Assembly (NCBI GenBank): GCA_963749655.1
Contig: CAVVOB010000015.1
Location: 64,001-128,000 of the forward strand
Length of the DNA: 64,000 nt
Direction: 5' to 3'
From: Nitrospirota bacterium
GTDB lineage: Bacteria; Nitrospirota; UBA9217
Below the pieces are notes generated by a model. It was not told where the DNA came from. It was given only the letters and a program-made list of their open reading frames with translations, and did not search any database. A program made the position numbers and the translations under genes. This document shows positions 9,037 through 34,808 of the stretch, in pieces. The stretch's first letter is position 1. Each line of letters begins with the position of its first letter.

Positions 9037-9082
9037 GCAAACCCTCCGATTTCAATTCCACATTCCGCAATCCGTAATTTTG

Positions 9083-10720: not shown

Positions 10721-10763
10721 GGACGTACTATGCCCAATTTTGCGCCGCCCGTCAAGTCAATCT

Positions 10764-15557: not shown

Positions 15558-15567
15558 CGGGAAAAAC

Positions 15568-16608
15568 TCATTTCACATATTGGAAGGTCTGCACACGGCC
15601 GTTTGTTTGATCGGCGATGTAGATACGATTTTGCTCATCAATGTAGATGCCCGCCGGCATCCAAAAATCTCCGGAAAGACTCCCTGTTCTTCCCCAAGTC
15701 AGCAGGAAAATGCCTTCCGGATCGAACACAAGGATATTATTGCTTACCGAATCGGTAACGTATAAGTGTCCGTCGGCATCCACCGCTATGCCTTTCGGCT
15801 GAATGGCATACCCGGGCATTGTACCAGAAAGACTGAAGGACTTCAAGAATTTACCCTCGGAATCGTACTCATACACGCTCCTGCGAAGGGTATCGAGTAC
15901 GAAAACGTTCCCCTTGGAATCAAGGGCGACCGCGCCGGGAAACTTGAAATCCTCGGACTTTTTCCCCGTGGCACCGATATCGAACAGATGATCGCCGTTC
16001 GTACTGAACACTTTCACCTGATGGGTGTGAGTGTCAGCGACATAGAGTCTGTTGCGAAAATTATCGACAGCGAGGCCTCCTGGTCTGGAGAGGGAGTTTA
16101 TCTGCCTGGATATGGGCCCGAGGGTGCCGCCGAGGACTAAGCTGACATTTCCATTTCTGTCAAAGCCGAATACTTTTCCCTGCTGCGCATCAGAGACAAA
16201 AACGACGCCTGCAGAGTCCACAGCGATGCCGGAAGGAGAGAGCAATTTCAGCTGACTTCCCGCGGTCGGAGCCGCATTGTTCAGGATCGTAACGTTGCGG
16301 TTCCCTCTGTCGAATATGAACACCCGGGCGGGCGATGCATCGGTCACATAAACGCGGAAAGCATCGGCGTAGACGGAATTAGGCGCCTGAAGGGTAGTAG
16401 CGCGGTCGGTGTTGTATGCAATGTCCTTGAAGCTTTCCCCGCGAAGGCTCGCTTCGTTCCGGAGGGTTTCCACATAGAGAAACGAAAGGCCTTTCTGCGC
16501 GGCTGCATCCTCTTTTCCGATGATGACGCTGCAGCCGGCAGCGCAAAGAGCGACAATGAAAAGTCCTGTGTATAAGGTTCGTGAGATCATAGGTAATTTT
16601 GCCTGCAT
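15568..16608 (-). CDS. NHL-repeat beta-propeller lipoprotein
   Basis: Lipobox AAGC and NHL repeats (PSGIAVD, PGGLAVD, PKGIAVD). Confidence 0.85.
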   Translation of the reverse strand: MQAKLPMISRTLYTGLFIVALCAAGCSVIIGKEDAAAQKGLSFLYVETLRNEASLRGESFKDIAYNTDRATTLQAPNSVYADAFRVYVTDASPARVFIFDRGNRNVTILNNAAPTAGSQLKLLSPSGIAVDSAGVVFVSDAQQGKVFGFDRNGNVSLVLGGTLGPISRQINSLSRPGGLAVDNFRNRLYVADTHTHQVKVFSTNGDHLFDIGATGKKSEDFKFPGAVALDSKGNVFVLDTLRRSVYEYDSEGKFLKSFSLSGTMPGYAIQPKGIAVDADGHLYVTDSVSNNILVFDPEGIFLLTWGRTGSLSGDFWMPAGIYIDEQNRIYIADQTNGRVQTFQYVK

Positions 16609-18549: not shown

Positions 18550-19858
18550 GGCACCCCGGCGCGCATGATCCTCCGGTCTTGCTCGGGCTGTAATTCATCG
18601 GCATGAGCCAGCCGTTGAACCCCACCGTCTGCCGAACATGATGCAATGACCCGCTGTCGGCGTGGACTTCATGACAGGCCCTGCAGGTCCTCCCTTTTGC
18701 CGCCTTGTTTACATGAAAATAATGAAGATTCTTTCGCCCGTTCCTGAAAGCGGTAGCGTCGTCCGTTCGTGGCTCCTGGAAGGCCGTTTTGTCATGACAG
18801 GAGAAACAGAGCGCATACTTGCCGTCGGAATAGGACGTGTAGAAATCTGCCGGATAATAGCGCGTCAAAATGCGCCAATAGTCCGATCCATGGGGATTGT
18901 GACAGGAGGTGCAGTCCTTGTTCTGTACTGGGCCATGACTGTTCTTCTGGGTTGCAAGCCAAGTTTTCATGTCCATGATCCTGCCGCGTTCCGTATCGAA
19001 TTGTTTGTTATGGCAGCGCAGACAAAGGTCCATCTCAGGCTCGGGCAGGAGGCGTGCGTTGTCGGAGTAGTGCGGATCGTGGCAATTCAAGCACGTTTTG
19101 GCGTCGATCATGGGACCATGCTTGACTGCGGCTTTTTCCATCAGCGACGTTTCGCCCGGATGGCACTTGGAGCACAAGGCCGGGACCGGAGCCGACATCA
19201 TCGCTTTGTTCGCAGATCCGTGCGGGTTGTGGCATTGCACGCACGATTGCCGGACAGGCTGATGAGATGACTTCTTTATTTTCAGACCGTCTTCTTTGTC
19301 AGGATGGCAGGTAAAACACAGCTTATTCCCCTCCGCAATCAGTCTGTGCGGAAAATCACTTTGATGGTTGTCATGACAGCCGGAACAGTCGCCTCCGGCC
19401 ACGGGAGGGTGCATGACCTTCTGCTTCATCATGCTGTCAGGATGGCACTGGAAGCAAAGGCTGGGTACGGTGTCCTTCAGCATGCCTTTATTCGGAGAAC
19501 CGTGGGGATTATGGCACGTAGTACAGTCTTTCCCCATGATCGGAGCATGAACCGTCTTTTTCGTGTTTTTCGGCTCATGGCACATATAGCAGAGGTCTGA
19601 ATCTGATTGGACCAGGGAAATCGTCAGGTTACCCGGATGCTTCGCATTCTTTTTTGCAGGTTCCTGCGTCACCTGGTGACAAGTGGAGCATCCATCCTTG
19701 ACAGGAGCATGAACAAACTTGAATTTCGTGAATTTAGAGTGGCAGGAGCCCGAGATGCAGGATTCGGTTTGAGAGAAGGACGGAGAAACGAGCATGGTGT
19801 TCATCGTGACGATCAACAAGGAGAACAATAAAATGTCCCTTATAGGTTCTTTATTCAT
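18524..19858 (-). CDS. Multiheme c-type cytochrome (13 CXXCH plus CX4CH and CX3CH), paired-CXXCH type
   Basis: Signal peptide and H.PV...CxxCHxPH repeats. The start at 19858 has a GGGAG RBS and lies downstream of a sigma54 promoter. Confidence 0.9.
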   Translation of the reverse strand: MNKEPIRDILLFSLLIVTMNTMLVSPSFSQTESCISGSCHSKFTKFKFVHAPVKDGCSTCHQVTQEPAKKNAKHPGNLTISLVQSDSDLCYMCHEPKNTKKTVHAPIMGKDCTTCHNPHGSPNKGMLKDTVPSLCFQCHPDSMMKQKVMHPPVAGGDCSGCHDNHQSDFPHRLIAEGNKLCFTCHPDKEDGLKIKKSSHQPVRQSCVQCHNPHGSANKAMMSAPVPALCSKCHPGETSLMEKAAVKHGPMIDAKTCLNCHDPHYSDNARLLPEPEMDLCLRCHNKQFDTERGRIMDMKTWLATQKNSHGPVQNKDCTSCHNPHGSDYWRILTRYYPADFYTSYSDGKYALCFSCHDKTAFQEPRTDDATAFRNGRKNLHYFHVNKAAKGRTCRACHEVHADSGSLHHVRQTVGFNGWLMPMNYSPSKTGGSCAPGCHEQKTYSR

Positions 19859-19937
19859 ATTCGTAAAACTCCCTGTTGTTTGTAAATGATTGGCGAGATG
19901 ATGATTGATAAATATTCTTTTTATCCAAGGTAAAAAC

Positions 19938-19953
19938 TGCAAATTATGTGCCC
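19938..19953 (-). promoter_or_regulatory. Sigma54 -24/-12 promoter
   Basis: Minus strand GGGCACATAATTTGCA (GG-N10-GC), with an IHF-like AATCATAGTCTTG at 19978-19990. Confidence 0.7.
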
Positions 19954-20035
19954 GTAAAAAGAAATCAGAAATACTAGCAAGACTATGATTTTATGAAGAT
20001 AATTAATCTACTATCTAATATGAATTAACATCTTT

Positions 20036-20072
20036 TGAGCAAATATGCTCATAACAATTAATTATCGCTCTA
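20036..20072. promoter_or_regulatory. Putative enhancer (bEBP upstream activating site)
   Basis: Palindrome TGAGC-N6-GCTCA plus a CGCTCTA element, repeated at 28535-28572. Confidence 0.6.
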
Positions 20073-20248
20073 GAGGAAAAGGACCGCCGAGAAAAAAGAA
20101 TTACCCTTAATTACGTACGGCCGGCAAAAACCGCTTTTCCGGCAACGTAAAATACCAATCCCTACAATCGATCTGTAGTCCGGATCACGGGAAAAAAGGG
20201 GCGCGTACGCTCAGTGCGGGGAAAACGGACAAGGGGGGACCAAGCCCA

Positions 20249-21010
20249 TTATTCAAGATCGGGATGACAGCGCTTACAATCCTGAATCGGGAAAGCAACA
20301 GTCAGATGGCAGGCTCCGCAGAACATTCCTTTATTGATGTAGTCCATGCGGAAATGCTTTGTGCCTTTTTTCTGGATATTAAAGATATCAGGATGACAGT
20401 CTGCGCAATCAAGCCACTCTGTATGCTTCAGATGAGGAAAAACGGCTCTGGTCTTTATCATGTTCCATTCCGGTTCAAGACGCAGGTTTTTGTCGAAGGG
20501 AATCGGCTCATAATTATCCGTAAGGCTCTGATGCGGTTTTATCATTTTTTTCCTGAGAGCCTTCACCCAGTTCACTTGATCGCCGTATCTCGCCCGGGGA
20601 AGGTTGTCCAGTTCCGAGTACCTGGCGTCTGTGGATCCGATGTTTCCGGTATGGCAGAGCAGACAGGTCTCTTCGGTGACTGCGAACGCAATGGTTCCGT
20701 TATGGCAGGCGCCGCAATACTCGCCCTTTTTGATCTTTGCGTCGGTGATGTCGGTTGCATTCGCTTTCATTGCGAAATTAAGCTCAAAGTGACAGACACG
20801 GCACGTATAATACCGCCGATGGACCCAATGGGAAAAAGACACTGGCGGATGCGTGCTGCTGGCGGTCAATCTGCTGATGAGGACATTGCCGTACCGTGCA
20901 GGCGGAGGGAGTTGCGGAAGGTTAAAAACGTCGTCGAACTGGGTGCCGGCAGCCATTGCGGCATGACTCACGGCACCCAGCAGAACGAAGAAAAAAACTA
21001 CTACTCGCAT
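20249..21010 (-). CDS. Hexaheme cytochrome with two c7-type triheme domains
   Basis: Signal peptide, FSHWVHR..YTCRVCH, 6 CXXCH motifs. Confidence 0.88.
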   Translation of the reverse strand: MRVVVFFFVLLGAVSHAAMAAGTQFDDVFNLPQLPPPARYGNVLISRLTASSTHPPVSFSHWVHRRYYTCRVCHFELNFAMKANATDITDAKIKKGEYCGACHNGTIAFAVTEETCLLCHTGNIGSTDARYSELDNLPRARYGDQVNWVKALRKKMIKPHQSLTDNYEPIPFDKNLRLEPEWNMIKTRAVFPHLKHTEWLDCADCHPDIFNIQKKGTKHFRMDYINKGMFCGACHLTVAFPIQDCKRCHPDLE

Positions 21011-21062
21011 AAATTACCTGGCTTTGCCATCTGCCAATCGTGAAGTTCCTGCATGAAACCGA

Positions 21063-21848
21063 CTAATAGACTTCTTTCAAATGACAAAGTTGACAATCAT
21101 AGAACGGGAACGCAACCTTTGCATGACAGGCGCCGCAATACTTTCCGGCGAAGATATCCTGCATGTTGTATTTCGTCGATCCCTTTTTTGCTCCGAAAAT
21201 TTCAGGATGACACAATTCGCAGCCGTTGATTTCGGCGTGGATCTTGTGAGAAAAGATGATGTCCGGCATACCCAGGATCGTTGACTTGATGTCAAAGTCC
21301 TTCGGATTGGGGATGGCCTGTCGCTTGATGGAAATCCCCTCGACCAGGTCCTTGAGCTTGATCTGCCCGGCGGCCTCGGCTTTCATCCAGTCAACCCTGT
21401 TTCCAAACCGAGCCTGAGGGTAGTTCTTTAAATATTCGTTGAAATCATATTTGAACTTTACGTCCTTGCCGTAGGAATGGCAGCGGTCGCAGTTCTGCGT
21501 CTCGGACACAACCTTGTCGCGCGAGGTAGGACCGAAGGCCTCTTTCCCGTTGTGGCAGGAGCCGCAGTAAAGATTGTTCTTGTTGTCAGCTTCCCTGATG
21601 TCGCTGCCGCCGGCCTCCATGGCGAAACCAAGGTCCACGTGGCAGACCCTGCAGGTATACTTCGATCGGTGGAGCCAATGTTTGAACACTACCGGAGCTA
21701 TATTGCTTTTCTCCGAATAGTTGTTTATGACTACGTTACCGAACTCCTCGGGTCGCGGCATTCTTTTCTTGGTGCCGAAGTTGGCTGCAACCGCAAGGGA
21801 TGCAAACACCAGCACAAACACGGCAATGATCAGAACTTTGAATTTCAT
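21063..21848 (-). CDS. Hexaheme cytochrome with two c7-type triheme domains
   Basis: Signal peptide, FKHWLHR..YTCRVCH, 6 CXXCH motifs. Paralog of 20249..21010. Confidence 0.88.
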   Translation of the reverse strand: MKFKVLIIAVFVLVFASLAVAANFGTKKRMPRPEEFGNVVINNYSEKSNIAPVVFKHWLHRSKYTCRVCHVDLGFAMEAGGSDIREADNKNNLYCGSCHNGKEAFGPTSRDKVVSETQNCDRCHSYGKDVKFKYDFNEYLKNYPQARFGNRVDWMKAEAAGQIKLKDLVEGISIKRQAIPNPKDFDIKSTILGMPDIIFSHKIHAEINGCELCHPEIFGAKKGSTKYNMQDIFAGKYCGACHAKVAFPFYDCQLCHLKEVY

Positions 21849-21936
21849 AATACCTTCTCCTTCCTCAGTTTATCATCTGCTGCAAGGCGTCCTTATTGAC
21901 GCGAACTCACTCGGACCATGATGGACCACCGGTGCT

Positions 21937-23390
21937 CTACCGGTGGCAGCTCAGGCACAAATCCGCCGGTTTCTCCGCTTTATAGCGGAAGAGATCCGAC
22001 CAGTCGGAGCTGTGCGGATTATGACAGCTGACGCAGGCCATCTTTCTCCCCGGCCGCCTCGGATCGTCCGCGCTGTCGAGAGGATGTCCGGCCTGTGATC
22101 CCTTTGCCTTGAGCCCCGGCAGCGTCGTTTTCGGGTGGGGATTGTTAAAGATGCCTTTGTGGCACTTCCTGCATGATTCATTTCCTTCGAACTTCGACAA
22201 ATTTTTGTACGGTGATGTGTGGTTGCCGTGGCAATCGTAGCACTTCCCGTCAGCGACAGGCTTATGCACGTTCTTGCCGGTGAATCCCTCGGTATTGTGG
22301 CAGGTGTAGCACAGGTCAGGCACTTTTCCGCTCAGGAGCTTGGGATTCTGGCTCTGATGCACGGTGTGGCATCCATTGCACATGCCGATCTTGAAGGGAC
22401 CGTGTTTTTCCTTGCCCCCCAGCTCCTCATTCATATGGCAATCAAAGCAGAGGGCCGGTGTCGATTTCGTCAGCAAATATTTCGACTTTGCAACATGAGC
22501 ATTGTGGCACGTCGTGCACCTCCCGCCCGCTACCGGCTTGTGTCCGTACTTCGCGCCTGTAAAGGATTTCTTATCATGGCACTTGTAGCACAGGTCCGGC
22601 TGCTTTGCCTGCAGAAGCTTCTCTGTTTTTGATTGATGCGAGGTATGACAGGACGAGGCAGTTGCCTTCCTCAACGGGAGCGTGCACGATCCCCCCGGTG
22701 TAGGCGCTCTTGTCGTGGCAGGAGTAGCAGAGGCCGGGTGAATCCGCTACAAGCAGATTTCTTGCGTTCTCGGAGTGCGGGTTATGGCAAGAATTGCATT
22801 TGCCGGAGATTACCGGTTGATGCTGCATCGCGCCTCTTGTCGGCAACGCTCGCCTTATCATGACACCGGAAACAAAGTTCAGGCATGCTGAAGGTCAGCA
22901 GTTTTTCGCTGTTGTCCGAACTGTGGGCCTCATGACAAAACATGCAGAGACCGGCGGCAGTGGGGAAATGAACGTTTTTCTTGGCAGCGATCTTCTTATC
23001 GTGGCACTTGTAGCACAGGTCCGGCATGGCCGTAGTCAGCAGCTTGACGTTGTTGGATGAATGCGGGTTGTGGCAGGATGTGCATTTGCTCGTGCCGATC
23101 GGCTTGTGCTGATACTGCTTTAAAAAAAGACCTCTGCTGTGGCAGTCATAACACAGATCAGGCTGATCGGCCTTAAGGCTCAAAGTGGCCTTGTCCTTGC
23201 TGGCATGAGGATTTTCGTGGCAGGCGCTGCACCCCTTCTTCATTGCTGCATGGAGCACCTTCCCCTTGCTCATTGCCTCATGACATTTATTGCAGTCCTG
23301 GTCCTGCGCCGCGGCCGAAGGACGCGCAAAAACGAGAAGAGATGCACAGAAGCATGCCATACAGAATGCGAGTAGGTTCTTACGTTTCAT
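21937..23390 (-). CDS. Large multiheme cytochrome (about 19 hemes; two frameshifts near 22830 and 22660)
   Basis: Three overlapping ORFs continue one paired-CXXCH repeat (7+2+10 motifs, one spanning a frameshift). Signal peptide present. Confidence 0.82.
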
Positions 23391-23453: not shown

Positions 23454-24751
23454 TTACTTGATCTGCCGTATAAATTGTTTGAGTTCGGAGTCATCGGGGG
23501 CGATCTTGAGAGCCCGTTCCCAGGTATCTTTCGCCCTGTCCTTCTTCCCGATTGCGTAATACCCCGATCCGAGCCTCTTCCAGGCAAGGATATTCTTCGG
23601 CTGCAGTTCAATGACGATGGTGCACTCCTGGATGGCCAGGTCGTAACGCCCGTCGTAAATATGATTCAATGCGGCGAAGAGGTATTGATCAACGATATTC
23701 ATGTCGCCCACCGGGGCTTCCATGGTCGTCAGGATGGAGACATACTTGAGCTCAAGGAATCCCTTGACCGCAATGGTCAGCGACGTCGGGTTCAGTTGAA
23801 ACGCATACCAGGCTGCGGCCATGGAGGCTTTGCGGTTGCCGTCGACGGCGATGTAGTGCGCCATCGCCGTTCTCATCATGTCGCCTGCCAGGTTCGCGTC
23901 GTCAATGCGAAGCGCCACTTTGGCGACATCTTCGAGCCGCGAGATCATGGTCTTGACGTCGATGTCGGTCGGGTTGTCGGCAAGGATCTTGCTGTAATAG
24001 TCGCGCGCGGTTATGTAGTCGCCCCGTTCATAGGCCTGTTTCGCATCGGCGTAGATGGTCTTCATTTTCTCACGAACTGCCGACGCTATGTACCGGGAAG
24101 CGGCTTCCTGCTTGTCGTCGATATCGAGGATCTTCTTCCATTCGGCAATCGCCAGATCGTACTGTTTGTCCTTCATGTAGGCGTCGGCCTGGTCGTAGTG
24201 TTTCTTGGTCCGGACATCGACGACATTGCTTTTTGCCTTGTTCAGGAGGCTCAGGGCTTTACGGTCGTAAGGTCTTACCGCGAGGATCTTCTCCAACTCG
24301 TTGACCGCGGACGATAGTCGTTTTCCTGGATGAACTTCTCGGCCTGCTCGTGCATCTCGTTGGTGGTCTTATCGGTAATGAGATTTTTCGTTGTGTCTAT
24401 CAGGGTCGCGAACCTGCGGTCGTCGGGGTTCATCTTCAGCAGCTTGTCCCACGTCTCGATCGCCTTGGCGTAATCCTCGTTCAGGAACGCGTCGGTCGCT
24501 TCCTTGCAGAACGGCTCCATCGACTGCTGTCTGGCCAGCGCCAGATAGCGGGATGCGGTCTTGTCGAAAGGATCGATGGAGAGGATCTCGTTCAACAGAG
24601 GCGCCGCCTGCTCGAATTTCCCCTCTCGGAGGAGAGCGACGACGTCCTTCTTGAGCTGATCGATCCGCTCGACCTGCTTCGGCGTTACGGCTTCAGCGCC
24701 GGCTGCAATGCAGAACAGAAGCAACAGAATAAGAGCAAAAGACTTTTTCAC
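23454..24751 (-). CDS. Secreted TPR-repeat protein (frameshift near 24310)
   Basis: Signal peptide AEA. TPR helices run across ORFs 24275..24751 and 23454..24296. Confidence 0.8.
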
Positions 24752-25417
24752 CCTTTGACTCCTCTGACCACGGTGATTTCGATGCGCCGGTTTTTTGCCC
24801 GTCCGGCGTCATCTTCGTTTGAAGAGGCGGGCCGATACTCGCCGAAACCGTGGGCTACCAGCCGCTCGGGGGGGATCCCCTTGTTGATGAAAAAATAAAT
24901 GACGCTGAAGGCCCGCGCCGACGACAGTTCCCAGTTCGACTGGTACTGCTGGGTGTGAATGGGAACATTGTCGGTGTGACCTTCTGCAATGATGCTGTTG
25001 CCCATGGGCTTCAGCTGACTCTCCAGATAGTCCAGGAAAAACAGGATGTCCTTCTTGAGGTCGGCGCTGCCGCTGTCGAAAAGGGCGAAGGCTCTCCATG
25101 TTGATCTCGATGTTGTGCGGGGTCATCTTGATGCGGATTTTGTCTTCCAATCCGTTTTTCTTGATGAAGTCCCGTACATTCTGGGCCAGCGCGATCTCCA
25201 GTTTCATCTGCTTGACCCGCGGATCGTTCGGGTTGGTCGATGCAAGATCGGAAAGCGCTGTTTCATATTCCACGGAATTGACCGAGGAAAAGGCGTAGAA
25301 CATGATGAAGAGAATGACGAGGGTGAGCATCAGGGTGCTGTAGGGCAGCATCCAGAGCTCGGTCTCCTCCATCTGTTCTTCGGTATAATGTACGAATTTC
25401 TGAAGAACCGATATCAC
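24748..25417 (-). CDS. MotB-like stator B subunit lacking the conserved Asp (frameshift near 25090)
   Basis: WMLPYSTLMLTL TM helix. OmpA-like EGHTDN, SNWELSSARA, GRAKNRRIEI. Confidence 0.82.
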
Positions 25418-26084
25418 AGCGTGCTCCTGGGCTGACGCACGATCGTCAGCTCGATTCGCCTGTTCCGTGCGCGATGTTCTTCCGAATCATTCGGAAACGC
25501 CGGATGGAATTCGCCGTAGCCCGCGGCAACAAGCTGTTTCGGATCCATTCCTGATGAGGTGAAAAAGTTGACGACGCCGACTGCCCTGGCAATGGATAAT
25601 TCCCAGTTGGACCGGTAGGCTCCCCCGCGCACGGGTGTCGGGTCAGTATGGCCTTCGATGATAATGTCGTTCGGAAAGGGCTCGAACATACCCTACCAGA
25701 CTCTCCAGGACGTTGACTGTTCCGGGGTTCAGCTTGGCGCTGCCTATGGAAAAGAACGATTCGGGATTCAAAGCTATCTTAACGGACTTCTCGCCGACCT
25801 CTATGGTCGCTTTGCCGGCCAGCTTGCCCTCGGTCACCGCCTGCTGGAGCATGCGGATGGCTTCTTCTTCCCGCTGCAGCTTTGCCTGACGCTCGAGTTC
25901 CACCTGGTCGCGCGCCGATCTGTTGATGACCGTACTTTCCATGCCCGAAACGACCATCTGCTTATCTGCTGCGGTCATGCGGGTCATGGCAAAGAGCATG
26001 AGGAAAGAAAAGCATGAGGTTCGTGGTAATATCGGAGAAGATAATGAGCCAGATATTCCCTATTTCTTTTCGTTTTTCCGTCAT
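25414..26084 (-). CDS. motB: MotB-like stator B subunit with conserved Asp (frameshifts near 26005 and 25690)
   Basis: ATG at 26084 reads MTEKRKEIGNIWLIIFSDITTNLMLFF. The C-terminus has EGHTD, SNWELSIARA, RARNRRIEL. Confidence 0.8.
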
Positions 26085-26124: not shown

Positions 26125-26896
26125 TTATTTCTGCCGCATATGAGCCATGATGAATGCAGTCAGTTTCTTCCGCAGAATGAGCGGCACATCGCCCTGCTGG
26201 ATCGACATGATGCCTTCAGCGATCATCTCTTTGTTGATGATGTCGCGTTCGCTGTGGTCCGTGAGCTTCGTGGCGATCGGGATGAAGACATTCGCGGAAA
26301 AGATCCCGTAAAAGGTCGCCGTGACGGCGTTCGACATGGCGGCGCCCATGCTCGAGGGATTGGACAGGTTGCGCAGCATGTCCACGATGCCCATGAGTGT
26401 GCCGAGCAGTCCGAAAATGGGGGCGACCGTGGCCATCGTCCTGAATGCTCCGGAGACCTTCTGCTGGTTATGACGCGTGTAGAATATCTCCCGGCCGAGG
26501 TTGTCCTTGATCACGTCATGATCGAGGCCGTCCACGAGCATCTGCACTCCATGAATGAGAAATTTGTCGGTCTGGTTGGGCAGTTCCGACGGAAGACTCT
26601 CGATGCCCTCCCGCCGTGCCTTTCTCGGCAAGAGTGGAAAGATGATCGATCATGTTTTCCATGTCCTTGTCGCTGTGCTTGCTCGGGAACAGGAGGATGC
26701 GAAGCGACGGGACGATTTCCTTGATCACCGGCCAGGGATAGGCGATCAGGGTCGCGCTGAACGTACCCCCGTAAACGATGATCAGGGCCAGGGGATTGAA
26801 AAGCATATGCAGGATGTTGCCTGCAGCGAGAACATACAGGATCGTCAGCAGTATCGCGACGAGCCCGATTACGGTCATTTTATCGATTTTTTCCAT
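26125..26896 (-). CDS. motA: MotA/PomA-type stator A subunit (frameshift near 26625)
   Basis: PLALIIVYGGT, ARREG, APIFGLLGTLMG, ATFYG, EGIMSIQQG. Confidence 0.88.
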
Positions 26897-26898
26897 GG

Positions 26899-28330
26899 TT
26901 AGCTGTTTTCAACCTCCACGAGTCCTTCGCTGATCAGCCGCCTTACCAGAACCATCACATTCTGCTTCTCCCGGCGCAGCCGCGTCGCTGAGAGAGGACG
27001 ACTGAGGTCCATTTCTTCCTTGAGCCGTTCCGATGCTCCGGCGCTCAGGGAGGTAATGACTTTCTGCTGGATCTCGACAGGAAGGGATTTCAAAACCTGG
27101 GCAAAGAGCGTGGCGTCGATGTTCCGGTACAGCGTCTGAACGCCCTGCACGGGCAGATCCCGGATGATGTTCTCCAGGCTCTTCACTTTCTGTTTCAGGC
27201 GCGTCGCGGTCTGGGCGTCTTTCGTCTCGAGTGTTTTTACGATCTTGTCGCGGACGTCGTCGCTCGTCATATCGAGCAGCGTGACCAGCTTTGCTCTCGC
27301 CTCCTACGACGTACGCCAGCTTGCTTTTGACCATCTCTTCGAGGGCCGCGACCTTTTCCGTGTTGATTTCTTCCTTGCCGAGCGCGAGTGCAACTTCGAC
27401 CTGCCGCTCCTTCGGGAAAAGTTCAAGGAGCCTCATGGCGATCGCGGGGTCGAGATAATTCGCCACAACTGCTATATCCTGGGGGGTCTTGTCCTTCATC
27501 AGGAACGCCAGACTCTGGATGTCACGCTCCCGGATGAAGGAAAACGGAAGAGACTGGTCGGCAGCCGGCGCACCTGCTCCGGAGCGGTCCGCTTTGCCGG
27601 AAAGGACCTCCCGCTCGTAGCTGGACGTACGTTCGACCGTATTGACATTAACGGAAGTCGAAGATGCCCCCCCGCGAATGTGATTCCAGTCGATGTCCTT
27701 GAGCGCCGGGGCGATTTTTTTCAACGGGTCCATGAAGAACATCCCGACGGCGACGAGCATGAAGCCGCCGATGATCGTCAGGAGAAGCCAGAAGAGGTTC
27801 GGCGGGAAAAACAGGGATGACCAGTAAAAACCCTTGGATTCGAAGTCTACCTTCTTTATGTTGATCTGGTCGCCGCGATTCTGGTTGTAGCCGATGACGT
27901 TCTTTGCGATGTCCTCGATAAGAGTCGCGATCGACCCCGGAACGCTTTTGTCGATCCATATCGACAGGACGATCTTGTTGACCTTGTACTTGCTGCTCCC
28001 GGCGCCGAACAGCATTTCCGATTGCCCCGCGCCGAATTCCTTCTTTTCCGGAACTCCGGGAAGTACGAGGGCGTTCGTTTTTTTCTTTTCAAGAAGCTTA
28101 TCGCTGTCCCCCCGTGCCGACGCCAGCTCGGCATTCACGAAAATGACGACCCGGTCGGTGCCGGTGATTTCCATGATAACCTGCTTCAGCTTTCTTTCGA
28201 GCTGGTTCTCAAGGGAAATCTTGAGTGCATAGTCATCGTTGACCTCGGCGTGGGCCCGATGAACGGTTGCAGCAAATGTCAATGACAGCAGCAGAAGGCA
28301 GAGCACGAAGCGATTCAGTTTATGAACCAT
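26899..28330 (-). CDS. FliF ring-building (RBM3) domain - TM - FliG middle/C-terminal fusion protein (frameshift near 27291)
   Basis: Signal peptide. The FliF C-like part has LENQLERKL..G...VFVNAEL, LPGVP, KIVLSIWID, IGYNQNRGDQINI. After one TM come the FliG-like KTPQDIAVVANYLDP, VGG linker and LSAGASERLKEEM...VRRLISEG. Confidence 0.8.
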
Positions 28331-28445: not shown

Positions 28446-28461
28446 TGCAAATAGCATACCC
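28446..28461 (-). promoter_or_regulatory. Sigma54 -24/-12 promoter of the motor operon
   Basis: Minus strand GGGTATGCTATTTGCA (GG-N10-GC), with an IHF-like AATCGGTTTATTA at 28486-28498. Confidence 0.65.
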
Positions 28462-28572: not shown

Positions 28573-28753
28573 TCACTGCCGTCATATGTTCGATAGCGCG
28601 ACACAATAACATATTGATTCAACATTTGTAAAGTGGAATCTTGTCTTTTAATTGAATTGCGTGTATGATACCCCCCGCAGATTTTTACGGGACCATTCAC
28701 CAAAAAAAATTCCCAAAATATTGGGTGCTGAGACCCGAAAAAAGGACGGTACT

Positions 28754-30397
28754 ATGCGTAACGTAGCGGTTGGAATATTGGTTTGTTTCATGATGGTAAA
28801 CATTGTCGGTACAGAAGCGTCGGCCGCCAAAAAAGACTCCAAAAAAACGACAAAACAAACGACCGCAACGCCTGCACAAACCGGGCAGGAGGCGGCCGCA
28901 AAGCCGGAAAAGTCGGAACCGATCAATGCACGGTACACCGACAAAAGCGACGGCACGATCCTGGACAAGAATACCGGGCTTGTCTGGTTGAAAGACGCAA
29001 ATACCGGAAGTCTCCCTTTGCCGTACGAGGGGGCAAAACAGTACCTCCAGGAAATGAACAGCGGCAGGAAGCCCAATTTCGGCTTTACCGACTGGCGCCT
29101 GCCTACCATCAATGAAATTGAGACCCTCGTCGAAAAAACCAGGTTCTATCCGGCGCTTCCTGCGGGCCATCCCTTTACGAACGTGCAGAATAATTATTAC
29201 TGGTCTTCTTCAACGGGCAGAGATGTCATTGACTATGTATGGATCGTCGACATCGCCTCGGGCGAAATGACCATGGACTATGTGTCGGCATGCAGCTACA
29301 AATTCCTCTGGCCGGTGAGAAGCGGCTGGATGCCGACTACTGCGAAAGCCAGCACGGTCATGACCGGAGGTTTGAACGAATTCGGACAGCTCGGCGACGG
29401 TTCAACGGGAGACCGGGACGCCCTTCTGCCCGTCAGCGGGCTTGACAATGTCGTCCGGGTCTCCGCAGGACTTGAACATGCCGTAGCGCTCAAATCCGAC
29501 GGCTCGGTGTGGGCGTGGGGAAGAAACAACGGCGGCCAGCTCGGAAACGGCTCCAGTGAAGACAGCCGCGTTCCTGTCGCAGTCAAGGACCTCTGGAAGA
29601 TCACCGATGTGGCGGCCGGCATGTTCCATACGGTCGCACTCGCTTCAGACGGCGCCGTCTGGACCTGGGGAAGGAACTCCTACGGCCAGCTCGGAAACGG
29701 CTCGAACACCGACTCCAACACTCCCGTAAAGGTTAAGGGCCTGTCGGGCGTCGTCAAAATCTCTGCAGGGATGTATCATACCGTCGCGGTCAAATCGGAT
29801 GGAACCGTCTGGACCTGGGGGAGAAATGTCTACGGTCAGCTCGGGAACGGCTCGAATAAGGACGAAAACAGCCCGGTGCAGGCTTCCGGACTTTCCGGCG
29901 TGATCAACGCAGCAGCCGGTCTGCATCATACCATTGCCCTGAAATCGGATAAAACCGTCTGGGCATGGGGCTGGAACATCAACGGGATGCTGGGGGACGG
30001 GACAAGCACTGACCAGATGAAGCCGGTGAAGGTGCTGGGACTTTCCGACATCACAGACATCGAGGCCGGGCTCCATCATTCTATCGCACTCAAGACGGAC
30101 GGGACGGTCTGGGCATGGGGCGGCAACGAATACAGCCAGCTCGGGAACAAAACGGCGAATGGGGCCACTGCCGTGAAAATCGAGGGGTTGGGGAACATCA
30201 AGAAAGTTTCCGCAGGGACCTACCATTCCATTGCGGTGATGTCCGATGGGACGATCTGGGTGTGGGGCAAGGACCTGAAAACACAGCCCGCGAAGCCCTA
30301 TCCCGTGAGGATCTGGGATGTGGCCGGGATCAACGATGTGGCCGCAGGAAGGTTTTATACGGTCGTGCTGAGCGGGGGCAAAACAACGGCGCCATGA
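28754..30397 (+). CDS. Secreted DUF1566 (Lcl-type) plus RCC1-repeat beta-propeller protein
   Basis: Signal peptide. DGTILDKNTGLVW...DWRLPTINE..YWSSS, then about 7 repeats of ALKSDGTVWAWGxNxxGQLG. Confidence 0.82.
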   Translation: MRNVAVGILVCFMMVNIVGTEASAAKKDSKKTTKQTTATPAQTGQEAAAKPEKSEPINARYTDKSDGTILDKNTGLVWLKDANTGSLPLPYEGAKQYLQEMNSGRKPNFGFTDWRLPTINEIETLVEKTRFYPALPAGHPFTNVQNNYYWSSSTGRDVIDYVWIVDIASGEMTMDYVSACSYKFLWPVRSGWMPTTAKASTVMTGGLNEFGQLGDGSTGDRDALLPVSGLDNVVRVSAGLEHAVALKSDGSVWAWGRNNGGQLGNGSSEDSRVPVAVKDLWKITDVAAGMFHTVALASDGAVWTWGRNSYGQLGNGSNTDSNTPVKVKGLSGVVKISAGMYHTVAVKSDGTVWTWGRNVYGQLGNGSNKDENSPVQASGLSGVINAAAGLHHTIALKSDKTVWAWGWNINGMLGDGTSTDQMKPVKVLGLSDITDIEAGLHHSIALKTDGTVWAWGGNEYSQLGNKTANGATAVKIEGLGNIKKVSAGTYHSIAVMSDGTIWVWGKDLKTQPAKPYPVRIWDVAGINDVAAGRFYTVVLSGGKTTAP

Positions 30398-30418: not shown

Positions 30419-30736
30419 CTACTTGTTTTTGTTCGTTTCGATCATGAATTCGTACATGGCGCGGCAGTTCTTTAACCGCCGCAGATAAACTTTCTTTGCC
30501 GGATCGTTCGATGCCTGGATCTCCGGCGCGAGTTTGTCCGCCCGTTCAACAAGGGCCGACAGCTCCTTTGCGCTGAGAGAGCCCGAAGCATCCACCTTGG
30601 AGCAGATTTCTTCGAACGCCGCCTGCCATGCTTCTGCGGCGATGGCAGGACTGCCGGAGACGAGCGTGAACATGCCGGCCAGAATGAGGAGCGTGATGCC
30701 TTCTTTTATGGGTGAGAGGAGTCGATGATTTTTCAT
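30419..30736 (-). CDS. Small secreted helical protein
   Basis: Signal peptide, W..FEEICSK...LKNCRAMYEF with a Cys pair. Confidence 0.65.
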   Translation of the reverse strand: MKNHRLLSPIKEGITLLILAGMFTLVSGSPAIAAEAWQAAFEEICSKVDASGSLSAKELSALVERADKLAPEIQASNDPAKKVYLRRLKNCRAMYEFMIETNKNK

Positions 30737-30975: not shown

Positions 30976-32355
30976 TCAAAGGATCCCAAATCGTTTCATT
31001 CTCCGTCTGAACGCGTCTCGGGGCATCTTCAGCAGCTGGGCTGCTTTCGTCTGGTTGCCGCTTGTCATATCGAGCGCTTTTCGTACCAGTGCGTTTTCGA
31101 CATCCTCGAGGGCCAACCCCGTCTCGGGAATGACGAATCCATCAAGGGAAACAGGGGTGCTCATCGATGATACTTCAGGAGAACGCCCTTCGAGAATTTC
31201 GGGAGAAAGATGTTCCGGTCGGAGCTCGTCGTCGATCTCCAGGATCATCGCCCGTTCGATGACGTTCTTCAACTCCCTCACATTCCCGGGCCAGGAATAG
31301 GTCAGAAGGATCTGTTCCGCCTCCTGCGATATGCCGCGCACATGCTTGTGACACTCCTGGTTGAAATACTCGATGAAATGGTGCGCCAGAAGCAGAATAT
31401 CCCGCCCGCGATCCCTGAGCGGCGGAAGGTTGATCGGCACGACCTGAAGGCGGTAGTAGAGGTCTTTCCGGAAAGTTCCGTCGGTCATGGCCTTTGAAAG
31501 CTCATGGTTCGTAGCCGACACCATCCGGACATCTACTTTGATGTCCTTGACCCCTCCGACCCGCTTAAAGGTCTTCTCCTCCAGCAGCCGGAGCAGTTTG
31601 GCCTGCATGCTCAGGTGCATGTCGCCGATCTCGTCGAGGAATACCGTTCCGCCGTCGGCCAGCTCGAAAAGTCCCTTCTTTGCGTTTTTCGCGTCGGTGA
31701 AAGCGCCTTTTTCGTGGCCCATCAGCTCGCTCTCGAGGAGGTTCACGGGTAAAGCCGCGCAGTTGATCGCCATGAAAGGCTGGTCGCCCCGGGCGCTGCT
31801 GAAATGAATAGCCTTGGCCACCAGCTCCTTGCCCGTTCCGCTTTCTCCCTGGATAAGGACCGTCGTAGCATCGCTCTTTGCTATCTTCAGGATAAGGTTC
31901 TTGATCCGCACCATTTCTTCACATTCGCCGAATATGGCATCTACCCTGCTCCTGCATTCCTGGCGAAGCTGCTTCACCTGAATGCGGAGTGAGCCGGCCT
32001 CCAGAGCCTTCTTTATGACAAAGGTGATCTCTTCCAGGTTAAAGGGCTTGCTCAGATAGTCATAGGCCCCGAGCTTCATGGCCTTGACCGCCGTTTCCAC
32101 CATGCCGTAGGCGGTGATCATGATCACCATGAGACCGCGTTCCTGGACCTTCAAGGTGCTCAGGAGCTCCAGGCCGGTCATTTCCGGAAGACGGTTATCG
32201 AGAAGCACCAGATCAGGCTGGTCCTCGTTGATCAGTTCCAGGCCTTTTTCCGCCGACTCAGCGGTCATGACCTCGTACCCTTCCTTTACCAGGTGCTGTT
32301 CCAGGGTCCACCGGATCAGTTTCTCGTCGTCAATAACCAGGATTTTATGCGCCAT
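30976..32355 (-). CDS. Sigma54-dependent response regulator (NtrC/AtoC family)
   Basis: Receiver domain, GESGTGKE, GAFTDA, WPGNVREL, C-terminal HTH. Confidence 0.93.
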   Translation of the reverse strand: MAHKILVIDDEKLIRWTLEQHLVKEGYEVMTAESAEKGLELINEDQPDLVLLDNRLPEMTGLELLSTLKVQERGLMVIMITAYGMVETAVKAMKLGAYDYLSKPFNLEEITFVIKKALEAGSLRIQVKQLRQECRSRVDAIFGECEEMVRIKNLILKIAKSDATTVLIQGESGTGKELVAKAIHFSSARGDQPFMAINCAALPVNLLESELMGHEKGAFTDAKNAKKGLFELADGGTVFLDEIGDMHLSMQAKLLRLLEEKTFKRVGGVKDIKVDVRMVSATNHELSKAMTDGTFRKDLYYRLQVVPINLPPLRDRGRDILLLAHHFIEYFNQECHKHVRGISQEAEQILLTYSWPGNVRELKNVIERAMILEIDDELRPEHLSPEILEGRSPEVSSMSTPVSLDGFVIPETGLALEDVENALVRKALDMTSGNQTKAAQLLKMPRDAFRRRMKRFGIL

Positions 32356-32370
32356 AGTCAGGTGCTCCTC

Positions 32371-33849
32371 TTATGCTCGGTCGTTCCGAGGGTACGGGAA
32401 CGTAATGATGAAGCTCGCCCCCTTCCCCGGGGTGCTGATCACGTTGATCTCGCCCCCATGCTGCTCGATAATTCGCTGGGTGATCGACAGGCCGAGCCCT
32501 GTTCCCTGCTGTCGGGTCGTGAAAAAGGGATTGAATATCCGGCCGAGATTTTCAACGGAGATGCCTTTCCCCGAGTCCGTGAAGGTTACTTCCACCGATC
32601 CCGCGCTCTCCCCCCCGGGCTTGTACGCCCTTGTTTCCACCAGGAACGTACCGCCCTCGGGCATTGCCTGGATGGCGTTCAGCGCGATATTAATGAGCGC
32701 CTGCTGAATAAGGTCCGGATCGAGCGTCAGCCAGGGCAGTCCCGGAGAAAGCTTCCGTTCGGCGGCTATTCCGTTCTTGGCGAACTGGGGCGCAAGGAAA
32801 TCGTGAATCTTGCTGATCAGCTCGTTGATGTCCACCAGGGTCATCTTCGGTTCGGGCGGTCTCGCAAAGGAGAGCAGGTTGCGCACCGCCTTGTCCATGC
32901 GTTCCACCTGCGACAGGACTTCTTCCAGCACCACCCGCTTCTGGTCACCCACAGCCTGGTCCTTCTTGAGCACCTGGATAACGCCGGCTATTCCCGCCAG
33001 GGGGTTCTTGATCTCGTGGGCGATGCCTGCGGCCATCTCGCCGATGGAAGCCAGCCGGTCCGCCCGCTTCATCTGCTCATAGTGGTACCGTTCAACACGC
33101 CTTCGCGCCCGCTCCAGTTTTGTCAGGAGCGAATTGAAGGCTTCGCCCAGCCGGCCGATGTCGTCGGAGCTCTTGACGTCGACGCGGGCTTCAAGTCCGC
33201 GTTCCGCGCGTTCCATCGTGACGATCAATTCCTGAATAGGGTCCGTCACGAAATGCGTCAGAAACAGGGACAGAGAGACTGCCAGGATCGCCGTTACGCC
33301 GAAAGCCCAGAGAAACATCGTCTTGCTCAGTTCGCCGACCTTCTCCTGGGTCTGGGCCATGGAGACGTCCACGGCCAGAATGCCGTTCAACTTGACCTTC
33401 GTACCGTGGCAGTGAAAGCAGCGGGCGTCGTTCTCGATGGGGAACAGAACGGAAAAAATGCCCTCTTCCCGCCGCTTGATCGGCTTCTTGAATTTGCTCG
33501 CAAGAAACCATTTTTGCGTAAAGGCATCCACTCTCCTGCCGATCATCCACGGTTTGGAGGATTTCAGGACGACCCCATTGGGGCTGAAAATCTTCACTTC
33601 CTGGATATTGTGGTACCCGCCGACCGCCTCCAGGATGTGCTGGACCTCTTTGCTTTTTCCGTCCAGCATGGCGTTAGCCAGGCTTCGATCGATCGTATTG
33701 GAAATGATCAGGACGTTGTCTTCGAGGGAGTCTTCCATCTGGGCGCGCTGATACCGGATGTTGATCCAGGTGCCCAGTCCGATGGTCACCGCAAGGATCG
33801 CTGAAACGGAAATAATGATCTTGCTTTTGAGGCTGGAGATGATCGTCAC
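32371..33849 (-). CDS. Sensor histidine kinase with periplasmic c-heme motif and HAMP domain
   Basis: Two TMs, periplasmic CFHCH, AHEIKNPL, NAIQAM, GTGLGL. The GTG start overlaps the pyrD stop (GTGA). Confidence 0.88.
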   Translation of the reverse strand: MTIISSLKSKIIISVSAILAVTIGLGTWINIRYQRAQMEDSLEDNVLIISNTIDRSLANAMLDGKSKEVQHILEAVGGYHNIQEVKIFSPNGVVLKSSKPWMIGRRVDAFTQKWFLASKFKKPIKRREEGIFSVLFPIENDARCFHCHGTKVKLNGILAVDVSMAQTQEKVGELSKTMFLWAFGVTAILAVSLSLFLTHFVTDPIQELIVTMERAERGLEARVDVKSSDDIGRLGEAFNSLLTKLERARRRVERYHYEQMKRADRLASIGEMAAGIAHEIKNPLAGIAGVIQVLKKDQAVGDQKRVVLEEVLSQVERMDKAVRNLLSFARPPEPKMTLVDINELISKIHDFLAPQFAKNGIAAERKLSPGLPWLTLDPDLIQQALINIALNAIQAMPEGGTFLVETRAYKPGGESAGSVEVTFTDSGKGISVENLGRIFNPFFTTRQQGTGLGLSITQRIIEQHGGEINVISTPGKGASFIITFPYPRNDRA

Positions 33850-34808
33850 CCTGCATTTACCCTGCCGATGAGATCGGCAAGTCTCCCTGCGCCCTGTTCC
33901 TGCAGCACCTGTTCCATCCCGGCGAGCACGTCGAGGGTCGCGCGGGGATTGACGAAGTTCGCCGTTCCGACGGCGACGGCTGTGGCGCCCGCCAGGATGA
34001 ATTCCAGGGCGTCCTCGCCGTTCATGATGCCGCCCATGCCGATGATCGGCAGGGGGACCGCTTTCGCCGTCTGCCAGACCATGCGGACAGCCACGGGCCT
34101 GATCGCCGGTCCGGACAGGCCGCCGGTGCAGTTCGCGAGACGCGGCTTCCCGCACCTCACATCGATCGCCATGCCGAGCAGCGTGTTGATGAGGGACAAT
34201 CCGTCGCAACCCGCGTCGCGCGCCGCCTTGGCGAACTCGGTGATATCGGTCACGTTCGGCGACAGCTTGGCGATGACAGGCAGCTTTGTGGCTTTCCTTA
34301 CCGCGGACAGAAGCTCAAAGGCCGCTGAAAGGTTCGTGCCGAATACGATGCCGCCCGCTTTTACGTTCGGACAGGAGATGTTCACTTCGAGTCCGGCGAT
34401 GCCGGGGACATCGCTGAGGCGCTCGGCCACGCCGACGTAGTCTTCGAGGCTGTATCCGAAGATGTTCACGATCACCGCCGTATCGAAATTCCGAAGGTAC
34501 GGCATCTTCCGGGTGATGAACACTTCGACACCGGGGTTTTCGAGCCCGATCGCGTTCAGCATTCCCGACGGTGTTTCCCAGATCCGCGGCGGCGGGTTCC
34601 CCTTGATCGGTTTGAGCGAGACGCCCTTGACGATCACGCCCCCGAGCTTGTTCAGATCGACGAATTCCGAAAATTCATCGCCGTAGCCGAAGGTGCCGGA
34701 GGCCGTCAGCACGGGGTTCTTCAGCCTGATGCCGGCAAAATCGACCGAGAGGTCGGGCTTCGTGATTGCGGATTGCGAATTGCGAATTGCGGATTTTTTA
34801 TCCTTCAT
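33846..34808 (-). CDS. pyrD: Dihydroorotate dehydrogenase B catalytic subunit
   Basis: NPVLTASGTFG, NAIGLENPG, NISCPNV, KLSPNVTDI, GGLSGPAI. Confidence 0.93.
   Translation of the reverse strand: MKDKKSAIRNSQSAITKPDLSVDFAGIRLKNPVLTASGTFGYGDEFSEFVDLNKLGGVIVKGVSLKPIKGNPPPRIWETPSGMLNAIGLENPGVEVFITRKMPYLRNFDTAVIVNIFGYSLEDYVGVAERLSDVPGIAGLEVNISCPNVKAGGIVFGTNLSAAFELLSAVRKATKLPVIAKLSPNVTDITEFAKAARDAGCDGLSLINTLLGMAIDVRCGKPRLANCTGGLSGPAIRPVAVRMVWQTAKAVPLPIIGMGGIMNGEDALEFILAGATAVAVGTANFVNPRATLDVLAGMEQVLQEQGAGRLADLIGRVNAG

Follow-up and report, generated by a model that had tools for sequence, protein, structure and literature searches.

Can the rotor of the flagellar motor occur, and be driven, without a flagellum? 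The question is raised by a locus in the 64,000 nucleotides (nt) of a Nitrospirota bacterium analysed here (GCA_963749655.1, contig CAVVOB010000015.1, positions 64,001 to 128,000; hereafter the window), where a minus-strand gene (26899..28330), directly upstream of stator genes, joins in a single chain a FliF-type ring domain (RBM3), one transmembrane (TM) helix and the middle and C-terminal domains of FliG (FliG M/C). To our knowledge, FliG and the FliF ring have until now been found only inside flagella, around the type III export gate. That one conserved fused gene encodes the chain FliF RBM3-TM-FliG M/C can be held with high confidence; that its product is a stator-driven, non-flagellar rotor is the reading we favour, with moderate confidence. 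The gene is laid out as follows, in window positions.

26899..28330, minus: fused FliF(RBM3)-TM-FliG(M/C) gene, supported by open reading frames (ORFs), Pfam and 78 intact homologues; in two frames in the window.
28247..28330, minus: predicted signal peptide, residues 1-28, ending in ...AHA and followed by EVNDD (hydropathy; conservation of the -1 residue).
27836..28246, minus: periplasmic FliF-type RBM3 domain, residues ~29-165, with a short low-confidence insert where the beta-collar would be (fold comparison; GFSxxRGD).
27722..27814, minus: single TM helix, residues ~173-203 (hydropathy; modelled helix 176-211).
27545..27721, minus: cytoplasmic linker, made of a conserved juxtamembrane ALKxIDWxxIRG and then a variable, low-confidence part (alignment; predicted local distance difference test score, pLDDT, <50 at 219-258).
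27296..27544, minus: FliG middle domain (FliG_M, E 3.7e-8; T. maritima FliG, E 3.8e-26; Z 16.7).
26899..27290, minus: FliG C-terminal domain including the torque helix (FliG_C, E 1.3e-15; FliG_C of 8ucs_H, Z 13.2, root-mean-square deviation (rmsd) 1.6).
27290..27296, minus: frame break, where the window is one base longer than relatives and contigs of other runs (alignment and outside contigs).
28446..28461, minus: candidate sigma-54-like -24/-12 element, GGGTATGCTATTTGCA, 131 nt upstream of the start codon of the fused gene.

Two open frames cover the gene in the window, one at 26909..28330 (473 amino acids (aa), the first ~345-346 residues being genuine) and an overlapping one at 26899..27270 (123 aa). 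In Pfam, YscJ_FliF_C (PF08345) matched residues 113-163 of the fused protein (E 6.2e-6; 27.2 bits, cut-off 23.8), FliG_M (PF14841) matched residues 272-341 (33.9 bits, cut-off 25) and FliG_C (PF01706) matched the short frame (58 bits, cut-off 23.3). No match of the protein was found with YscJ_FliF (RBM1/2, PF01514) or with FliG_N (PF14842), and its alignment to FliG begins at about residue 104, in accordance with an earlier reading of the letters and their translations (hereafter the sequence-only reading), which had noticed the absence of RBM1/RBM2 and FliG-N. Hydropathy revealed two hydrophobic stretches only, at residues 1-27 and ~173-203. The first, already described in that reading as a cleavable-looking signal peptide ending in AHA, precedes a conserved mature N-terminus (EVNDD), and the residue before it is Ala in 26, Ser in 1 and Thr in 2 rows of a 29-row family alignment; the start of the protein thus fits a cleavable Sec signal, with cleavage predicted by the -3/-1 rule. 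In the same 29 proteins the mean column identity is 68%, and within the linker A209 and L210 are invariant and W215, I218, R219 and G220 nearly so.

The identity of the two halves was examined at the level of fold. Against solved structures, a 29-member profile retrieved T. maritima FliG M/C (E 3.8e-26) and, weakly, FliF (E 0.048). In the AlphaFold2 monomer, an alpha-beta-[low-confidence insert 73-112]-beta-alpha-beta domain is followed by a long membrane helix, a disordered linker and a FliG-like helical array, and Foldseek returned FliG first (E 3e-9) and then FliF S-ring/RBM3 entries (E 1.4e-4 and above), so that the structure search proposed in the sequence-only reading matched both proteins. 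With VIA-align, residues 31-164 superposed on Salmonella FliF 232-438 (Z 13.5, rmsd 2.0-2.3, 97-99 residues) and on Vibrio FliF 260-452 (Z 13.6), the rmsd across FliF RBM3 matches ranging from 1.9 to 2.3; other ring-building folds scored lower (PrgK domain 2, Z 8.8; EscJ, 8.6; SpoIIIAG, 8.2). Residues 259-472 superposed on FliG 104-323 with Z 16.7. When the family profiles were aligned to full E. coli FliF by hhalign, only the last RBM3 elements were reached, at 368-433 (E 4.4e-3) and 400-433 (E 4.6e-4), with low probability; the GFSxxRGD motif is common to the fused family and E. coli FliF 400-433, the end of RBM3. Since the sequence signal for RBM3 is weak, the assignment is based on fold comparison. 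The beta-collar region is reduced to a ~40-residue insert (73-112, pLDDT <50), and the whole domain counts 134 residues against 207 in Salmonella. By these comparisons the protein thus has a periplasmic FliF-type RBM3 with an apparently shortened collar, as the sequence-only reading had proposed, and a cytoplasmic part corresponding to FliG minus its N domain; it shares the folds of FliG and FliF and probably works in a similar way. The same architecture, a single chain of FliF RBM3, one TM helix and FliG M/C, was thus recovered by Pfam, homologues, profile search, Foldseek and fold comparison.

Why, then, is the gene in two frames in the window? Most likely because of a one-base insertion in the assembly. 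Aligned to the window, the protein of an intact relative runs in frame -1 over 28330-27290 and continues, ungapped, in frame -2 over 27291-26902, and the nearest homologue (P0002, 94% identical) reads GGEGKLVTLLDM across the break site. The first 346 residues retrieved 87 homologues, namely the window's own call, 78 intact proteins (458-483 aa, with FliG_C on the chain) and 8 shorter fragments; in a sample of 201 genomes of the phylum, all 8 other holders carry the gene in one frame. The sequence-only reading had placed the break near 27291, with one A to be removed: the frames change at 27290/27291, and one base fewer than in the window is found at 27295 in a contig of run X1 (a 253-nt record that otherwise differs at 4 positions) and at 27296 in a contig of run X3. 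Instead of two separate genes, an outcome which that reading had considered, the contigs of other runs lack the extra base and 78 homologues are uninterrupted. Programmed frameshifting was rejected as well, because relatives and other-run contigs encode the fused protein in one frame.

The fused gene is not the only one affected. At least eight frame changes fall between 21940 and 28330 (one each in the fused gene, MotA, MotB2 and a TPR gene; two each in MotB1 and the first cytochrome gene), and the genes split by them are each single-frame in relatives. Outside contigs inform on three of the eight break sites, and all three show the one-base deletion relative to the window, the other two being at 26619 in MotA (run X2) and at 25683 in MotB1 (run X1); ~26004, ~24312, ~22845 and ~22666 have no informative bridging record, and ~25090 is reached only by a short loose-ended piece. 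The gene for the carbamoyl-phosphate synthase large chain, carB (36230-39540, minus), is likewise split into two frames (36230-37858 and 37654-39540, overlapping at 37654-37858), a sign of assembly indel errors beyond the motor operon. If the breaks were instead real, the operon would be decaying in this genome and the fused gene would be a pseudogene of a system still used by relatives. Such local decay is suggested by the concentration of at least eight frame changes in 6.4 kb, while the RCC1 gene, the third to fifth cytochrome genes, the response regulator and the kinase stay intact, a contrast that also tells against the rotor reading as far as this genome is concerned; moreover, the break sites are not long homopolymers, and the fused gene occurs in 0/10 other genomes of the genus, so that the lineage may be losing it. 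However, each outside contig over 27295/27296, 25683 and 26619 lacks exactly one base, the X1 contig over 27295 differs at just 4 of 253 other positions, and carB, normally a single gene, is broken in the same way. Protein identity to relatives is 75-92% on either side of every break, with no in-frame stops, and in another long-contig metagenome-assembled genome (MAG; L012) the gene call is likewise divided in two (P0081, P0084). We regard decay as quite unlikely.

Assembly error being preferred, the genes that follow can be read as continuous, and they encode stator proteins and a TPR protein.

26125..26896, minus: MotA, flagellar-stator type, with one frame change at ~26606-26631 (domain and NCBIfam matches).
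25414..26084, minus: MotB1, with a TM helix bearing the Asp32 equivalent and an OmpA domain; frame changes at ~26004 and ~25676-25692 (Pfam, alignment).
24748..25417, minus: MotB2, with plug and OmpA domains and Thr as the Asp32 equivalent; frame change at ~25088-25092 (Pfam, alignment).
23454..24751, minus: secreted TPR protein, one 421-432 aa ORF in relatives, split at ~24311-24314 (Pfam, alignment).

From the fused gene through MotA, MotB1 and MotB2 to the TPR gene, neighbours are separated by gaps or overlaps of 2-4 nt, and MotA plus two MotB genes, with the TPR gene after them, follow the fused gene in 15/15 Nitrospirota loci with at least 5 kb downstream; the fused gene lies directly upstream of flagellar-type MotA and MotB. 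MotA carries MotA_N and MotA_ExbB domains (Pfam). Among NCBIfam models it matched the flagellar MotA/PomA model NF005997 with E 1.8e-54 and TolQ with E 4e-4 (20.2 bits against a cut-off of 221), while staying under every equivalog cut-off (184.5 vs 340). Both MotB proteins have plug and OmpA domains, and at the Asp32 site MotB1 reads FSD.

This gene set might also be read as a Tol-Pal-like envelope system, in which the stator would power envelope integrity, or the placing and turnover of periplasmic and surface proteins, and the fused ring would replace TolA as transducer, with no role in motility. A channel of the MotA/TolQ family, OmpA-type B subunits, a TPR protein and beta-propellers (RCC1 and NHL here; Kelch and BNR elsewhere) do parallel the composition of Tol-Pal, and the TPR protein weakly matches the tol-pal YbgF model (E 6.3e-10, below the cut-off). 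The channel itself is nevertheless of flagellar type (E 1.8e-54, against 4e-4 for TolQ), no resemblance to TolA or TolB emerged from the family searches, and a second MotA_ExbB-family gene, located elsewhere in the genome, could serve Tol or Ton. A Tol-Pal-like role differs from that of a free rotor in its output alone, which neither reading names; we consider it distinctly improbable. Membership of Tol-Pal proper was rejected on the tolQ score and on the missing TolA/TolB family matches. Membership of Zorya was rejected too: in PADLOC no ZorA model matched MotA or the fused protein, and MotB1 and MotB2 matched ZorB models, as any MotB would.

Does this genome contain a flagellum to which the rotor could belong? 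In the 4.27 Mb assembly (86.6% complete), FliG_C occurs at this locus only, and no match was found for FHIPEP/FlhA, YscJ_FliF (RBM1/2), FliMN_C or Flagellin_N, consistent with the sequence-only reading of a ring with no export apparatus and no FliM switch. Within 8 kb of the fused gene, flagellar genes are absent from each of the 17 Nitrospirota loci and from the distant loci inspected. The fused protein could still belong to a flagellum or type III secretion system (T3SS) that does exist but went unrecognised, its other genes having been missed, given the incompleteness of the genome and the fact that one of the 8 other holders (G005) does have FHIPEP. Four separate flagellar/T3SS families would then have escaped detection in this genome, however; the other seven holders, in a set that is 90-100% complete, are without FHIPEP, the surroundings of the loci are empty of flagellar genes, and the fused protein itself has no RBM1/2, the domains placed around the export gate. 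This explanation is hardly credible.

What remains of the contacts made by FliG in a flagellum was mapped by alignment to E. coli FliG (K-12 record; E. coli numbering). The FliM-binding EHPQ (125-128) has become K-T-[A/P]-Q in the fused family and MFLF (233-236) has become [V/I]-K-S-[L/F], which agrees with the KTPQ and VKSL noticed in the sequence-only reading; the Gly-Gly linker of FliG is invariant. Of the torque-helix charges, which that reading had considered kept, K264 and the acidic residues at 288 and 289 are indeed present (D288 as E, or Q in some relatives; D289 as E), but R281 and R297 are lost, being replaced by an invariant G and by S, respectively. In distant members the hinge is kept as [IV]F[TS]F, the EHPQ site reads EQPR, EDPK or ESAE, and R281 is absent. 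On the stator side, MotA reads KARREG, including the ARREG previously pointed out, with the equivalent of R90 present; compared with E. coli MotA, R90, P173 and P222 are kept; of eight clade representatives, seven have R or K at position 90 and the eighth has H, and P173 and P222 do not vary. In E. coli, MotA R90 is reported to contact FliG D288/D289, and E98 to contact R281 (PMC12505986, in the part of the text available). Taking that contact together with the residues kept here, one charge pair appears preserved and the E98-R281 pair does not. A covariation of MotA E98 with FliG R281 was dropped as an argument, given that R281 is lost in all members seen and E98 is still E in 3/8 clades.

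How far does the family extend? Seventeen loci were collected in species-representative genomes, all of them Nitrospirota-labelled MAGs or an unclassified bin. When the fused-family profile was compared with 1.84 billion cluster representatives, 189 proteins were retrieved at E <= 1e-30; among the matches listed (the best 150 of 189), most cover the profile end to end, with lengths of 430-735 aa. In 28 distant members scanned, FliG_M and FliG_C were found in 28/28, YscJ_FliF_C in 9/28 (several over the whole profile, 1-147) and C-terminal TPR in 13/28. One distant full-length member, P0239, is labelled Elusimicrobia, and in Atlas the clusters carrying FliG_C/FliG_M/YscJ_FliF_C come most often from Elusimicrobiota, Cloacimonadota, Bdellovibrionota, Bacteroidota and Thermodesulfobacteriota, assignments that serve as leads only. 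Among the 65 metagenome loci of the distant clade, downstream sequence extends for 5 kb or more in 19; the fused gene is followed by MotA and one or more MotB in 16 of these 19, and by two MotB in 5. Other neighbours there include TPR or TPR+LysM proteins, Cache/HAMP histidine kinases, ~320-aa or fused 540-aa proteins with weak outer-membrane-barrel matches (UPF0164, PorV, TraF_2, FadL), and giant proteins with BNR/YCF48, fn3, Kelch and FlgD_ig-like ends. The core that is constant across lineages thus consists of the fused protein, MotA, MotB and the TPR protein, the remainder being lineage-specific.

Two genes upstream of the fused gene, three distant loci encode giants of 1592-2075 aa (L051:112-6339, L056:51-6260 and L053:152-4930). 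These proteins combine a BNR/YCF48 propeller with fn3, have a FlgD_ig-like domain at the C-terminus, and resemble cargo that is secreted or displayed on the surface. In the clade where the fused protein has a cytoplasmic TPR region at its end, a 1012-aa Glu/Lys-rich coiled-coil protein with no family match (L034:9955-12993, plus) lies between the fused gene and MotA. It could be a partner of the ring in the cytoplasm, and an Atlas search with it gave sub-0.9 leads to coiled-coil proteins only. Locus L054 has tandem fused FliF/FliG-type genes (7953-9506 and 9481-11628), the second with a C-terminal TPR, preceded by a gene for an AAA/T2SSE-like ATPase and with no MotA within 6.9 kb downstream.

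How such a machine would work can be proposed in outline, and on these points (ring formation, rotation, its direction and the output driven) we infer from homology. The fused protein would assemble into an inner-membrane ring, as FliF, whose rings count 33-34 subunits or so, and FliG do, RBM1/2 and FliG-N presumably being absent because the covalent link replaces the joint between FliF-C and FliG-N. The cytoplasmic FliG_C face of the ring would be engaged by peptidoglycan-anchored MotA5-MotB2 stator units encoded directly downstream, and ion flow through MotA and MotB1, which has the protonatable Asp that MotB2 lacks here, would turn it, perhaps in one direction only, as the sequence-only reading supposed. 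The Thr-bearing MotB2 may form a MotB1/MotB2 heterodimer or a non-conducting anchor. Since an export apparatus, a rod, a FliM/N switch and a filament are all missing, the work would have to be taken up in the periplasm or envelope, perhaps through the TPR protein, which is secreted, and through partners that vary by lineage: in the Nitrospirota lineage beta-propeller proteins and multihaem cytochromes, in distant members outer-membrane-barrel-like, LysM and giant surface proteins.

Several observations, besides the clustered frame changes already discussed, weigh against a rotor of this kind. The fused protein is not a member of FliG or FliF proper, having no N domain, FliM site or RBM1/2 and scoring under the curated NCBIfam equivalog cut-offs (TIGR00207 for FliG, 62.4 bits vs 226.7; TIGR00206 for FliF, 24.7 vs 129.75). 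The monomer model has a mean pLDDT of 68, with the collar insert (73-112) and linker (219-258) below 50, and a four-copy fold prediction of residues 29-172 scored 0.23, against a mark of 0.42, which speaks neither for nor against ring formation. Two of five torque-helix charges are gone (R281, R297), and MotA E98, with which R281 pairs, is replaced by A, Q or P in the Nitrospirota clade and remains E in 3/8 clade representatives, losses which indicate an altered rotor-stator interface. MotB2 of the Nitrospirota clade (24748-25417 in the window; L004:10895-11563) has no Asp, reading YST with Thr in its place, and three of the 19 distant loci (L054, L056, L070) show no MotA. The distribution is patchy, with the gene in 9/201 sampled genomes of the phylum (the other holders being 7/44 others of the family, 0/10 others of the genus and 1/3 of a second family), and partners differ by lineage, so that no single output is readable from context.

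Part of this evidence would suit a static, non-rotating membrane platform, in which the FliG-MotA contact would act as a clamp or sensor dependent on the proton motive force, anchoring periplasmic and cytochrome complexes to peptidoglycan through the OmpA domains of MotB. The altered charge pattern and the Asp-less MotB2 would be explained, as would two peptidoglycan-binding MotB paralogues, an OmpA-cytochrome fusion in the cluster, and the lack of a rod, bearing or filament to turn. Yet MotA R90, P173 and P222 and MotB1 D32, to which ion-coupled rotation is linked in E. coli, are kept; in distant clades neither MotB paralogue has lost the Asp; FliG's Gly-Gly hinge does not vary, and an MFxF-type hinge persists as [IV]F[TS]F in distant members; and a clamp would not need the whole of FliG M/C at 68% column identity. 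A static platform is therefore unlikely, though it deserves to be kept in mind, and we retain the stator-driven rotor as the better account of the locus. More tentatively, this could be a free-standing rotary machine widespread in uncultured bacteria (with leads in Nitrospirota, Elusimicrobiota, Cloacimonadota, Bdellovibrionota, Bacteroidota and Thermodesulfobacteriota), a single-chain ring spun by flagellar-type stators with no type III export at its centre, doing mechanical envelope work by moving or extending surface or periplasmic assemblies, which in this lineage would be multihaem cytochrome and beta-propeller proteins and in others giant adhesin-like proteins; so broad a claim is possible rather than probable.

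The remaining genes of the cluster in the window are the following.

16660..23390, minus: six multihaem cytochrome c genes, one with an OmpA domain (family matches).
14556..16608, minus: two NHL-repeat beta-propeller proteins (family matches).
28652..30397, plus: RCC1-repeat/Lcl_C protein, divergently oriented, with an N-terminal signal-like segment; a conserved neighbour (family matches, locus comparison).
30419..30736, minus: conserved 105-aa protein with a signal-like N-terminus (locus comparison).
30976..34209, minus: sigma-54-dependent response regulator and HAMP histidine kinase (family matches).

The RCC1/Lcl_C protein, the 105-aa protein and the sigma-54 response regulator recur beside the fused gene, even in members only 45-48% identical. 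The 105-aa protein, for which no match was found in Pfam, NCBIfam or PADLOC, lies next to the RCC1 gene in relatives, where its identity falls to 36-45%. Expression of the motor operon is probably under the adjacent sigma-54 two-component pair, and the upstream sigma-54-like element, scored against the sigma-54 consensus, agrees with the adjacent sigma-54 activator, though it is only a candidate; similar xGGTAC-N5-TTGCA elements were found in L008, L009 and L014 (3/11 relatives, or 4/12 upstream regions with the window).

On the other side of the operon, the first four cytochrome genes follow the TPR gene in 12/15 related loci, and the fifth and sixth, together with the two NHL genes, lie on the opposite side in the window as compared with relatives. 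Doubled CXXCH, c7-type and MtrC/F-like domains are represented in the run, and the cytochrome and NHL set resembles an extracellular electron transfer module tied to the motor operon (12/15 related loci). A tyrosine recombinase of the phage-integrase family (13475-14356, minus) lies at the edge of the cluster; between 14 and 30 kb G+C falls to 0.50-0.55, from 0.56-0.62 in the flanks, and the GC skew switches sign. Given the integrase, the lower G+C, a gene order unlike that of relatives and the absence of the fused gene from the ten other genomes of the genus, the cluster may be an acquired or rearranged island.

A conserved fused protein beside flagellar-type stators, in genomes without flagellar-gene matches, would show that rotor and stator can exist together as an independent module. 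It has long been asked how the parts of the flagellar motor came together, and here the question becomes testable by phylogeny and reconstitution: should the FliG and RBM3 parts branch outside the flagellar ones, the family would be a living relative of a rotor-stator module that predates the flagellum or existed separately from it. For reconstituting an ion-driven rotary motor in vitro, a one-protein rotor with MotA and MotB would also be simpler than any candidate so far. The association with multihaem cytochromes in Nitrospirota, and with giant surface proteins in other lineages, suggests that extracellular electron transfer or surface movement includes mechanical steps not yet recognised.

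In full-text literature searches, from which subscription journals are mostly absent, no description of a natural FliF-RBM3/FliG fusion or of a non-flagellar FliG-MotAB machine was found, and the conserved non-flagellar rotor-stator module is apparently undescribed. The closest annotation comes from a preprint on Elusimicrobiota, according to which unflagellated members carry fliG, motAB and flbD with a role called unclear (bioRxiv 10.1101/2022.07.08.499144). These genes probably belong to the fused family, because P0239 is a full-length member labelled Elusimicrobia and the Atlas clusters, as a lead only, are commonest in that phylum; in the portion of the preprint available the genes are listed from annotation, with no FliF-RBM3 fusion, signal peptide or conserved operon described. 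Residual flagellar T3SS genes put to other use are reported for the unflagellated Lysobacter enzymogenes in what is accessible of two further papers (PMC7277350, PMC7688988). There the export apparatus is the part left over, whereas here it is the part lost and the rotor-stator pair has stayed.

Ion-driven motors of 5:2 stoichiometry outside flagella are represented, in the accessible text of two reports, by GldLM (gliding and type IX secretion), AglRQS, TolQR, ExbBD and ZorAB (PMC9389320, PMC8986121). Like the present system, they use a channel of the MotA/MotB family to deliver energy to the envelope outside a flagellum, and surface or giant, TPR and outer-membrane-barrel-like proteins, which recall those motors, are found near the distant-clade loci of the fused family. 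AglRQS has two B-type subunits, as here. None of these five systems is known to have a FliG- or FliF-like partner. The stator described here is instead of the flagellar branch, with no ZorA match and a weak one to TolQ, and it has kept its canonical rotor partner.

That a fused rotor subunit is physically workable is indicated by laboratory FliF-FliG fusions of Salmonella and Vibrio, which still assemble rings (PMC6079021, PMC10941966, PMC11481574, as far as their text is available). Those consist of full-length FliF and full-length FliG, made or selected inside a complete flagellar system; the present protein is natural, pared to RBM3, one TM helix and FliG M/C, and found in genomes without flagellar-gene matches. 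With the flagellar rotor itself (FliF MS-ring and FliG C-ring, driven by MotA5MotB2) it has in common the RBM3 fold (Z 13.5) with GFSxxRGD, the FliG M/C fold with its Gly-Gly linker, adjacent flagellar-type MotA/MotB with R90, P173, P222 and D32, and sigma-54-type regulation nearby. It differs in being one chain instead of two, with a signal peptide in place of the second FliF membrane helix, in lacking RBM1/2 and FliG-N, in an RBM3 with collar of ~134 rather than ~207 residues, in the loss of the EHPQ FliM site, R281 and R297, in its two MotB paralogues, in scores below the NCBIfam FliG/FliF cut-offs, and in a genome where searches for FHIPEP, YscJ_FliF, FliMN_C and Flagellin_N matched no export gate, switch or filament gene. 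What is new here is the occurrence of flagellar rotor and stator parts in a non-flagellar, single-chain form.

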